Shown: positions 2,881-3,988, counted from the first letter of the stretch. The stretch is DNA of 5,162 nt from a virus (IMGVR_UViG_3300029517_000134:1-5162); one strand, 5' to 3'. Notes: generated from the sequence alone by a model not told the origin. Numbers and translations: made by a program.

Positions 2881-3015
2881 TCATCCACAAATTTTTCCCT
2901 CGTCCCATCAGCACACCGAATTTGCAGCGGCCTCACCACGCACTGTATCGGCTTTTTATCCGCATCCAGTATCACCACCTGCGTGATTACCCTGTCCTGC
3001 TCCGGAATAATGCCC
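2881..3015 (-). pseudogene. 3' remnant (about 45 codons, no start) of a paralog of the small post-tail-fiber gene; copy 1 of a ~135-bp imperfect direct repeat
   Basis: Hand alignment: 2881-3014 matches 3724-3859 at roughly 87% identity with 2 indels. The last ~50 bp (2966-3014 vs 3811-3859) are nearly identical. In copy 2 this sequence encodes the C-terminus of the 89-aa ORF; copy 1 has the same frame open but no upstream start. Confidence 0.55.
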
Positions 3016-3498
3016 TATTCGCTTGTTCTCAGAAATTGCCAGCAACCTTACACTACTTCTTTTGAGCCCATTTTTCGCCAGCCCTGAATACAGGAAAGTG
3101 TTAACTGTTTTTATGTTTACCCTCATCTCACTGGCGAGATGGGACGGACGCAACTGACGGTAGATATATCCAAACATCACCACCATCTCTGACATCGTCA
3201 GTGCCCGTGCTTTTTTGTTCCAGGTCCACAATCTGTTACGCACAGCATTATGTATATCATGTCCCCCTTTCAACGCTTCCAGATCCAGCTGAATAAAACG
3301 GCGTCCCTGAAACATGCTGCGCATTAAATGGCCCAACTGACTATCACAGATTATTAACCAGGATTCTTTACTATCCAGAATAACCCTGCGATTTTCCGGC
3401 ATAAAAAATTCTTGAGCCAGAATTACACGGCATCCTTTCAGTAACAAACGCAAACCATATTCCAGATAATAATTACGCGTCGCAAGAATGAGCTTCAT
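2956..3498 (-). CDS. LuxR/GerE-type HTH transcriptional regulator, GadE/YhiF-like (candidate prophage-encoded secretion regulator, Psr-like), 180 aa
   Basis: ORF track 2956..3498. C-terminal region LTMSEMVVMF...LASEMRVNIKTVNTFLYSGLAKNGLKRSSVRLLA fits the LuxR-family HTH pattern (LT..E...V ... LA......KTV ... L.K.G). Size and layout are similar to GadE/YhiF (~175 aa). SD-like GGGAAG about 8 nt upstream of the ATG. The last 19 codons (2959-3015) come from repeat copy 1 in a shifted frame. Confidence 0.7.
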   Translation of the reverse strand: MKLILATRNYYLEYGLRLLLKGCRVILAQEFFMPENRRVILDSKESWLIICDSQLGHLMRSMFQGRRFIQLDLEALKGGHDIHNAVRNRLWTWNKKARALTMSEMVVMFGYIYRQLRPSHLASEMRVNIKTVNTFLYSGLAKNGLKRSSVRLLAISENKRIGHYSGAGQGNHAGGDTGCG

Positions 3499-3663
3499 CG
3501 CCGAACTTCCCTGAACTACAGTAGTGTTCCATGCCTCGGTCGCAATCAGAATTTATGATTCCCCCTCCAGGGAACAAGATGGACATATCACTGCTCCTTA
3601 AAGGCATCCTTCACTCCATCGTATTAACATGTTTATTACTTCACACTCTAATAACAAATATCC

Positions 3664-3694
3664 CCTATACATGACAACAAAAACCGGAGCCGGA
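3664..3694 (-). terminator. Intrinsic terminator hairpin ending the tail-fiber transcription unit (possibly bidirectional)
   Basis: Stem CCGGAG (3674-3679) / CTCCGG (3685-3690) with a 5-nt loop, extendable by flanking A and T runs. On the minus strand the hairpin is followed by TTTTTGTTGT (revcomp of 3664-3673). It lies 25 nt downstream of the small ORF stop at 3719-3721. Confidence 0.5.
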
Positions 3695-3718
3695 CTCCGG
3701 TTTTGTGAAGCTGTCGGG

Positions 3719-3988
3719 TTACTTCATCCCGCCAATATTTTCCCACGTCCCGTCAGCACGCAGGATTTGCAGCGGTCTTACCACACACTGTATCAGCTTT
3801 TTATCTGTATCCAGTATCACCACCTGTGTGATTACCCTGTCCTGCTCCGGAATAATGCCATTCTCATCTGACTCCAGGATGTCTGCCGGCCCCAGTCGCA
3901 GTTGTGCTGTAAGCGACTGCACGTGTTCACGGCCATCATGCTTTCCGCAACCACACAGACGCTGCATAAGTTTTTTTAGTATATTCAT
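3719..3988 (-). CDS. Small conserved hypothetical protein (89 aa) translationally coupled to the tail fiber gene; function unknown
   Basis: The ORF track gives 3719..4120, but I place the start at ATG 3986-3988 (MNILKKLMQRLCGCGKHDG...). An AGGAG SD lies 7 nt upstream inside the 3' end of stf, and the ATG sits 1 nt after the stf stop (3990-3992). The ORF-track extension overlaps stf in another frame. No family recognised. Confidence 0.6.
   Translation of the reverse strand: MNILKKLMQRLCGCGKHDGREHVQSLTAQLRLGPADILESDENGIIPEQDRVITQVVILDTDKKLIQCVVRPLQILRADGTWENIGGMK
3724..3859. repeat. Copy 2 of the ~135-bp imperfect direct repeat (intact 3' end of the small post-fiber ORF)
   Basis: Aligns to 2881-3014 (see pseudogene entry). 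Homology starts at the last two codons of the 89-aa ORF and decays after 3859 / 3014. Confidence 0.75.

Follow-up and report, generated by a model that had tools for sequence, protein, structure and literature searches.

A direct repeat and a chimeric reading frame at the cargo end of a lambdoid prophage of Escherichia coli

In enterohemorrhagic and enteropathogenic Escherichia coli (EHEC and EPEC), exchangeable effector loci reportedly lie downstream of the tail-fibre genes of lambdoid prophages (Tobe et al., 2006, in PNAS). Effector and other cargo genes cluster after the tail-fibre genes of these prophages and are exchanged between phages (PMC3530523). Here we describe such a locus in a stretch of 5,162 nucleotides (nt) of viral DNA (IMGVR_UViG_3300029517_000134:1-5162), referred to below, at its full length, as the window. 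The window is 100% identical to DNA of E. coli strain AMSHJX01 and is the right end of a lambdoid prophage, abutting the chromosomal ibs/sib locus. Our subject is an open reading frame (ORF) of 180 amino acids (aa) for a LuxR-like regulator, which lies between two diverged direct copies of the 3′ half of a Phage_fiber_C (fiber_C) gene and takes its last codons from one of them. Like the described loci, this one occupies the slot after the tail-fibre genes near the attachment site, has cargo richer in AT and holds alternate effectors. Unlike them, it includes a regulator in its cargo and has kept the acquisition junction as a partial gene duplication with in-frame read-through. It is a well-resolved instance of ordinary effector-locus mosaicism and not a new kind of element.

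Two further systems bear comparison. In the loci for YadA-family Eib/Cla adhesins on E. coli prophages and plasmids (PMC13534694), homologs of the regulator lie 82 to 86 base pairs (bp) downstream of the adhesin gene, whereas the copy in the window has neither an adhesin gene nor a remnant of one, follows fiber_C and precedes a gene for the effector NleG. The PF06820 family includes a stand-alone 89-aa post-fibre gene (phrog_576); copy 2 of the repeat belongs to a full member and copy 1 is a fragment, which differs from the stand-alone gene in being truncated, in having a 3′ frameshift and in serving now as the terminal part of a different gene. Our preferred explanation, which we hold with a probability of roughly 0.8, is that the locus carries the scar of one illegitimate recombination at the cargo end of a prophage and that the fused block then spread as a unit.

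The direct repeat and its tail-fibre origin

On the minus strand, the gene order is collagen-like tail fibre, 89-aa fiber_C gene, hairpin terminator, 180-aa ORF, fiber_C fragment and NleG gene. The features are listed below in that order; coordinates throughout are those of the whole window, L numbers denote fetched comparison loci and P numbers denote homologous proteins.

3990-5162, minus strand: collagen-like prophage tail fibre gene, its 5′ end beyond the window and its C-terminus a third, distant Phage_fiber_C domain
3719-3988, minus strand: intact stand-alone 89-aa Phage_fiber_C gene (PF06820, E = 1.8e-34; phrog_576, tail fiber; WP_001023459.1)
3652-3718, minus strand: fiber_C 3′ untranslated region with an intrinsic terminator hairpin (3680-3705); phage backbone, shared by loci that have the regulator and loci that lack it
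3499-3651, minus strand: upstream region of the regulator, the right part of the inserted segment; common to the P0003 loci up to 3625 and to the Stx2-phage remnant over 3603-3651
2956-3498, minus strand: 180-aa ORF, an orphan regulator with a conserved core of residues 1-155 (3034-3498)
3005-3033, minus strand: junction zone, from nucleotide comparison
2956-3015, minus strand: chimeric tail, codons 162-180 plus the stop codon, read from copy 1
2881-3014, minus strand: repeat copy 1, a truncated and frameshifted 3′ half of a Phage_fiber_C gene (PF06820, E = 1.4e-8 on a 53-aa frame)
2827-2880, minus strand: left part of the conserved block, from copy 1 to the NleG start; homology to the regulator-free O157 locus resumes at 2865
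2266-2826, minus strand: NleG-family type III secretion system effector gene (DUF1076; PF06416, E = 3.5e-45), the variable left flank of the block

The repeat is confirmed and far exceeds what chance would produce. A repeat search aligned 2888-3014 with 3733-3859 over 127 nt, ungapped, at 89% identity; alignment with MAFFT widened the repeat to about 2881-3014 and 3724-3859 (~134 nt, with one 2-bp indel), and a BLAST search with copy 1 as query and the remainder of the window as subject returned 122 nt at 90.2% (E = 1.4e-45). The two copies share 49 of the 50 bases nearest the ORF, and past 3014/3859 identity falls abruptly to background. A first-pass annotation of the window had reported a repeat of ~135 bp, near-identical beside the regulator, with the body of the regulator gene and a terminator between the copies, and it was right on each point. 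The terminator hairpin folds at −23.3 kcal/mol (z = −3.3) and is followed on the minus strand by the U-run UUUUUGUUGU; a simple terminator scan overlooked it because the scan absorbs A/U pairs into the stem.

The repeat unit is the 3′ half (codons 44-89) of a PF06820 Phage_fiber_C gene. The gene containing copy 2 scored 118.4 bits against the profile and the copy 1 fragment 35.4 bits, both above the cutoff of 25. Copy 1 is truncated on its 5′ side at codon 43/44 and covers profile positions 30-58; a 2-bp deletion destroys its native stop codon, and the terminator is also gone. In the genome identical to the window, the Prokaryotic Genome Annotation Pipeline (PGAP) marks 2895-3014 as a pseudogene. 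Copy 1 is nearer to the O157-type fiber_C allele of L002 (92.6%) than to the window's own copy 2 (89%), and its diagnostic variants are common to the O157-type allele and not to copy 2. This pattern argues for two phage parents and against internal duplication, and it agrees with the earlier proposal of recombination between related phage ends. The 15 bp that separate the end of copy 1 from the resumption of the O157-type flank (2866-2880) contain ACAACAAA, which is also present just upstream of the fiber_C terminator, a hint that copy 1 may have lost its stop codon and terminator in a second small deletion at this place.

The C-terminus of the tail fibre (3990-4200) and the downstream 89-aa gene (3719-3910) also encode paralogous Phage_fiber_C domains, with 35% protein identity. 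Counting copy 1, the region has three Phage_fiber_C segments, all oriented alike, a sign that fibre tips may have been exchanged or duplicated more than once at this place.

The chimeric tail and its distribution among genomes

Residue 162 (G) of the ORF is encoded by the first codon within the repeat, and residues 162-180 are exactly GHYSGAGQGNHAGGDTGCG. The codons of the ORF begin at 3015, 3012 and so on and those of the fibre frame at 3014, 3011 and so on, an offset of one base, so that the final 19 residues do come from copy 1 in a shifted frame, as the first-pass annotation had it. These residues are confined to proteins from the same module; the comparison with homologs that the annotation had proposed found the Gly-rich tail in no other homolog. 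The tail is identical in all seven carrier loci that were fetched, and an exact 21-mer scan of metagenome contigs gave six true matches, all with the same tail and junction and three of them with one synonymous base change.

The further claim that the native C-terminus of the regulator had been replaced was correct in that the last 19 codons are foreign, but it was overstated, since the family profile is 156 residues long and is matched over residues 1-155, and tails in the family are variable. Conservation across homologs ends at about residue 153-155; many family members end at 155-160 aa, and in others an unrelated tail adds 15-60 residues. At residues 156-161 (ISENKR-I), the sequence is similar to that with which the long tails of the closest relatives begin (AIDEGRRE..., AINNGSHE...). 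The part of the variable tail that is the regulator's own (SENKRI) is encoded at 3016-3033, and nucleotide homology to the intact homologs of L005 and L009 stops at 3034/3035. Judged from these alignments, the conserved core is intact, which makes the tail mainly an extension; only a short variable end was trimmed and lengthened. In an AlphaFold2 model, residues 156-180 have a predicted local distance difference test score (pLDDT) below 50, and residues 162-180 are predicted to be disordered.

The bases at 3005-3013, CATTATTCC, have one match in fiber_C and another in the native tail (CACTATCCC) of the closest homolog with a long tail. Across the junction, the window reads CGA ATA GGG CAT TAT TCC, the homolog CGA GAA CAG CAC TAT CCC and fiber_C GAG AAT GGC ATT ATT CCG. 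The shared 9-bp motif CAYTATYCC suggests that microhomology mediated the join, which would reduce the truly foreign stretch of the protein from 19 residues to 16.

Using megablast, we found the module in 115 of 5,426 complete E. coli genomes; a derivative of EPEC E2348/69 is among the carriers. In a segment-by-segment comparison with five carriers (L006, L007, L017 from phage 2B8, L018 from an Stx1a phage and L019 from O121), the block 2827-3498 was 99.3 to 100% identical in all five. NleG was 86% or 68% identical or absent, and among these carriers identity was 91 to 100% for the terminator, 96 to 97% for copy 2, 89 to 100% for the 5′ part of fiber_C and 90 to 99% for the tail fibre. By this measure, copy 1 forms a mobile block together with the regulator, and the variable phage backbone includes copy 2 and the terminator. 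The invariant block, the single shared junction and the varying flanks argue for a single fusion, which homologous recombination in the flanks later spread. The regulator gene of O121 strain WL1277 is interrupted by the insertion sequence IS1 (L019 3724-4421).

The left-hand cargo differs by carrier: NleG and nleA in the window; NleG, a hypothetical gene and EspJ at torT; no NleG in O55:H7; and other genes plus EspM2 in phage 2B8. In O157:H7 (L002), NleG directly follows the fiber_C terminator, and the extra DNA of the window relative to this and other regulator-free loci is 2866-3651, the right edge of which lies 67 bp downstream of the fiber_C stop codon, outside the repeat. The slot holds NleH and Cif in O145 (L004), IS66 elements in L021 and, in another form, a decayed regulator remnant followed by tail genes. 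Such a remnant (window 3256-3437, 94.5%) follows the same terminator in 933W-like Stx2 phages (L003), which implies that the order fiber_C, terminator, regulator predates the fusion. In these Stx2 phages, window 3438-3602 is deleted and homology stops at 3256.

The module thus sits after the last tail-fibre gene, is present or absent among collinear loci and deviates in composition (43% GC, compared with 61% in the tail fibre), as a moron or exchangeable effector locus does. The idea of cassette exchange at this position stands in part: the site is a hot spot, at which NleG, NleH-Cif, IS66, the remnant and the module alternate, but the repeats are not the brackets of the exchange unit. Relative to regulator-free loci, the insertion has its edges at 2865/2866 and 3651/3652. 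The O157:H7 loci with NleG beside fiber_C were considered as a product of recombination between the two copies and rejected, since the terminator segment 3652-3718 is still present in them and their match to the window resumes at 2865.

A single-copy allele without the regulator, which the first-pass annotation had suggested looking for, is present in two genomes. A synthetic query representing a recombinant between the copies matched UTAK-1 and OkiPb01711 end to end in one piece; the phage records searched contained no single-copy form. In UTAK-1 (L020), the last 134 bp of the only fiber_C gene show all of the copy-1 variants. The left flank of this locus is 99.4 to 99.8% identical to that of the O55:H7 carrier L007 and has the same NleG-deletion junction, and its right flank is a different fibre allele. 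We lean toward regarding this allele as a product of repeat-mediated deletion rather than as a surviving parent, because the derived left-flank junction is shared and because the form is rare (2 genomes compared with 115).

Competing accounts of the locus

If the preferred explanation is correct, one parent phage would have had the order tail fibre, fiber_C, terminator and then the regulator as a moron, and the other would have had tail fibre, fiber_C and then NleG. A crossover, probably at CAYTATYCC, would have connected the regulator gene, within its variable 3′ tail, to a mid-gene position in fiber_C of the second parent, so that two direct copies of the fiber_C 3′ half resulted. The reading frame of the regulator would then continue into the fragment for 16 to 19 codons, offset by one base from the fibre frame, until a chance stop codon, and the product would be an otherwise complete ~156-aa protein of the LuxR/GerE type with a disordered, Gly-rich extension. 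The block 2827-3498 would have spread through homologous recombination in its flanks, which are NleG paralogs on one side and fibre genes on the other. The repeats would be by-products of this history and not exchange sites, although they could support deletion of the regulator.

Several points weigh against this account. No pre-fusion ancestor, with the same regulator allele, a native tail and a fiber_C context, was found by megablast of the genomes or in the 21-mer metagenome scan, so the two-parent history is a reconstruction. Copy 1 lacks ~55 bp of stop codon and terminator sequence, and an extra, unexplained rearrangement at 2866-2880 is needed. The microhomology argument leans on a homolog that is only 66% identical. 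The single-copy locus of UTAK-1 could be a surviving parent, given that its right flank is only 92 to 97% identical to that of L007. Finally, we infer that the tail is functionally neutral, and the block is so nearly invariant that a comparison of nonsynonymous and synonymous substitution rates (dN/dS) has no power to test selection on it.

The location of the regulator between direct repeats could also mean that the copies are the functional boundaries, att-like sites or homology arms, of a mobile cassette within which regulators are exchanged, and the single-copy, regulator-free allele is what recombination between such copies predicts. We consider this scarcely credible. Copy 1 lies inside the invariant block and copy 2 in the variable flank, the edges of the insertion are at 2865/2866 and 3651/3652 rather than at the repeat, and the single-copy form occurs in 2 of 5,426 genomes compared with 115 for the module. 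The repeat is a fragment of a coding domain, the module has no recombinase gene, and the copies do not have the character of a site-specific cassette, whether att-flanked or integron-like. An account that dispenses with a second phage parent, in which fiber_C was duplicated in tandem within one phage and the regulator was inserted later, draws on the direct orientation and close spacing of the copies and on the presence of three Phage_fiber_C-coding segments in the region. It is nevertheless very unlikely, given that the diagnostic variants of copy 1 are those of the O157-type allele and not those of copy 2. The regulator is fused right at the truncation point, where one event covers both truncation and fusion; the Stx2 phages have fiber_C, terminator and regulator remnant without a second copy; and two full fiber_C copies without a regulator were absent among the 5,426 genomes.

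A different challenge is that the 180-aa ORF is a dead pseudogene, as RefSeq has it, and that its chimeric tail is biologically meaningless. This we regard as a serious possibility, if on balance an unlikely one. PGAP calls only pseudogene fragments at the locus (L001 7054-7203 and 7399-7518), IS1 splits the gene in O121, Stx2 phages retain only a 62-aa remnant of it (L003 2959-3147), its usual adhesin partner is missing, and no promoter-like site was found on the coding strand over 3499-3680. Set against this, the ORF is unbroken and covers the family profile from one end to the other (E = 1e-91), its predicted fold is confident, and it is intact in phage 2B8, in Stx1a phages and in E2348/69. 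The pseudogene label is an artefact, because the reference protein used by PGAP, WP_001303606, is itself the 62-aa Stx2-phage remnant; we therefore rejected the PGAP calls as a sign of a dead ORF.

The regulator family and its genetic context

The ORF belongs to phrog_6585, for which PHROG lists the function as unknown; residues 1-155 align with profile positions 1-155 of 156. The 180-aa protein has no Pfam or NCBIfam match and no significant sequence match in the PDB. The window protein gave no match to GerE (PF00196) at E ≤ 0.1, none of 22 family members gave one at E ≤ 5, and the curated cutoff was not reached. The divergent relatives P0044 and P0045 scored 22.2 and 19.7 bits against Pfam GerE (cutoff, 23.5; E = 1e-4 and 6e-4), and these sub-threshold matches are in register at residues 98-141. 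When the family profile was compared with the PDB, the sole matches were GerE and three LuxR-family proteins, all weak (E = 0.19 to 1, with GerE best at 0.19). A HMMER profile search of 1.84 billion representative proteins gave no link to canonical LuxR-type members; 37 of these proteins match the family, the full-length ones being 155 to 169 aa long, and the named matches of the first homolog search were from E. coli in every case. As far as such searches reach, phrog_6585 is a tiny, isolated and narrow E. coli family of ~156 aa.

The AlphaFold2 model (pLDDT, 78.7; core, 85 to 92), built with 22 homologs, is confident for residues 1-155. It consists of a four-stranded alpha/beta N-terminal domain (strands at 2-6, 25-27, 46-51 and 67-72) and a four-helix C-terminal bundle (helices at 102-112, 118-125, 129-142 and 151-155; pLDDT, 86 to 92), of which helices 2 and 3 form the helix-turn-helix (HTH). 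The top Foldseek matches in the PDB were almost all NarL/FixJ-type proteins with a LuxR/GerE HTH (RcsB, StyR, FixJ, EvgA, LiaR and DosR), with probabilities of up to 0.99 (RcsB, FixJ and EvgA); the C-terminal domain of DosR superimposed with a TM score of 0.68 and a root mean square deviation of 1.9 Å over 56 alignment columns. The description of the regulator as LuxR-like is thus supported at the level of the predicted fold and by transitive, sub-threshold GerE matches in divergent relatives, but the protein falls short of the Pfam cutoff and is not a Pfam-defined member.

The predicted protein resembles NarL/FixJ regulators with a LuxR/GerE HTH (RcsB, EvgA, FixJ and DosR, and the small atypical EtrA) in its alpha/beta N-terminal domain and four-helix HTH. 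It is unlike them in belonging to a family of only ~156 aa, in having four predicted strands, in lacking Response_reg and GerE Pfam matches and in having T7 and N9 at strand 1. A complete receiver has five strands, with an acidic pair behind the first, a phospho-acceptor Asp behind the third and a conserved Lys behind the fifth; here the invariant residues T7 and N9 stand in place of the acidic pair. Because of these differences and the absence of a Response_reg match to the window protein, the N-terminal domain as modelled is not a competent receiver. An invariant Asp (D52) follows strand 3, and no adjacent histidine kinase belongs to the module. A 44-aa ORF that overlaps the start of the regulator (3473-3607, minus strand; L009 5892-6026) was rejected as coding, since its amino acid identity (~50%) is below its nucleotide identity (77%); the same ORF is called in several homologous loci, including the P0003 loci.

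A terminator precedes the regulator gene, which therefore needs its own promoter; a consensus promoter scan of the coding strand over 3499-3680 found none. No terminator-like structure was found between the regulator stop codon and the NleG start (2826-2956, minus strand), because copy 1 has lost the fiber_C terminator, and read-through from the regulator into NleG would be possible.

Beyond NleG, the window carries one further cargo gene:

686-1927, plus strand: nleA

The nleA allele here encodes 413 aa and has ~83% DNA identity to the O157:H7 allele, from which it also differs by an internal length difference, the BLAST alignment breaking at 1128-1187. About 30 bp upstream of its start codon is a near-perfect palindrome (624-657, plus strand) with 16-nt arms and a 2-nt gap, a possible candidate for a regulator binding site. 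At the edge of the window, which cuts it, Rfam SIB_RNA (RF00113, 80 bits) matches 1-80 on the plus strand; ibs/sib is a type I toxin-antitoxin locus beside yegL, and the right end of the prophage adjoins it.

Intact phrog_6585 homologs lie 82 to 86 bp downstream of genes for YadA-anchor trimeric autotransporters (Eib/Cla-like) in five independent contexts, comprising prophage ends and a plasmid (L005 4938-6687, L008 3964-5848, L013 4763-6474, L024 3815-5483 and L027 3869-5528). These homologs may be dedicated adhesin regulators. They are preceded by a terminator-like hairpin. A subgroup of 193 aa (the P0003 loci, L009 to L012) lies beside EspG and PerC-family genes rather than an adhesin gene and shares the upstream region of the window to 3625. 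Searches upstream of the window regulator with blastn-short and with blastx against three YadA-type C-termini found no adhesin remnant, and our literature search found no paper naming or testing the phrog_6585 family. Our best guess is that the protein is a small DNA-binding regulator that was originally tied to an adhesin and is here orphaned, with a neutral, disordered extension.

The locus offers a clean, datable example of how lambdoid prophages assemble virulence cargo, in which one illegitimate join has been preserved as the partial duplication of a gene and the block has then spread, by homologous recombination, to different effector contexts. This process is already accepted by specialists, and the repeat and the chimeric tail are unsurprising in themselves. 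The better lead is an uncharacterised regulator family tightly linked to Eib/Cla-type adhesin genes, and thus of interest for adhesin control. Through systematic pseudogene labelling in RefSeq, the gene is effectively hidden in annotated genomes, including that of the EPEC prototype strain. One proposal, doubtful as it stands, is that phrog_6585 comprises unrecognised, E. coli-restricted minimal LuxR-type regulators dedicated to the Eib/Cla adhesins of prophages and plasmids, whose genes they nearly always follow, and that strains positive for the locus of enterocyte effacement (EPEC E2348/69, and those with Stx1a phages) carry a copy that was captured without its adhesin, fused to a fibre-gene fragment and left, terminator-free, upstream of NleG. 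If this is true, the captured regulator could couple effector expression to prophage cargo or could cross-regulate adhesins encoded elsewhere.

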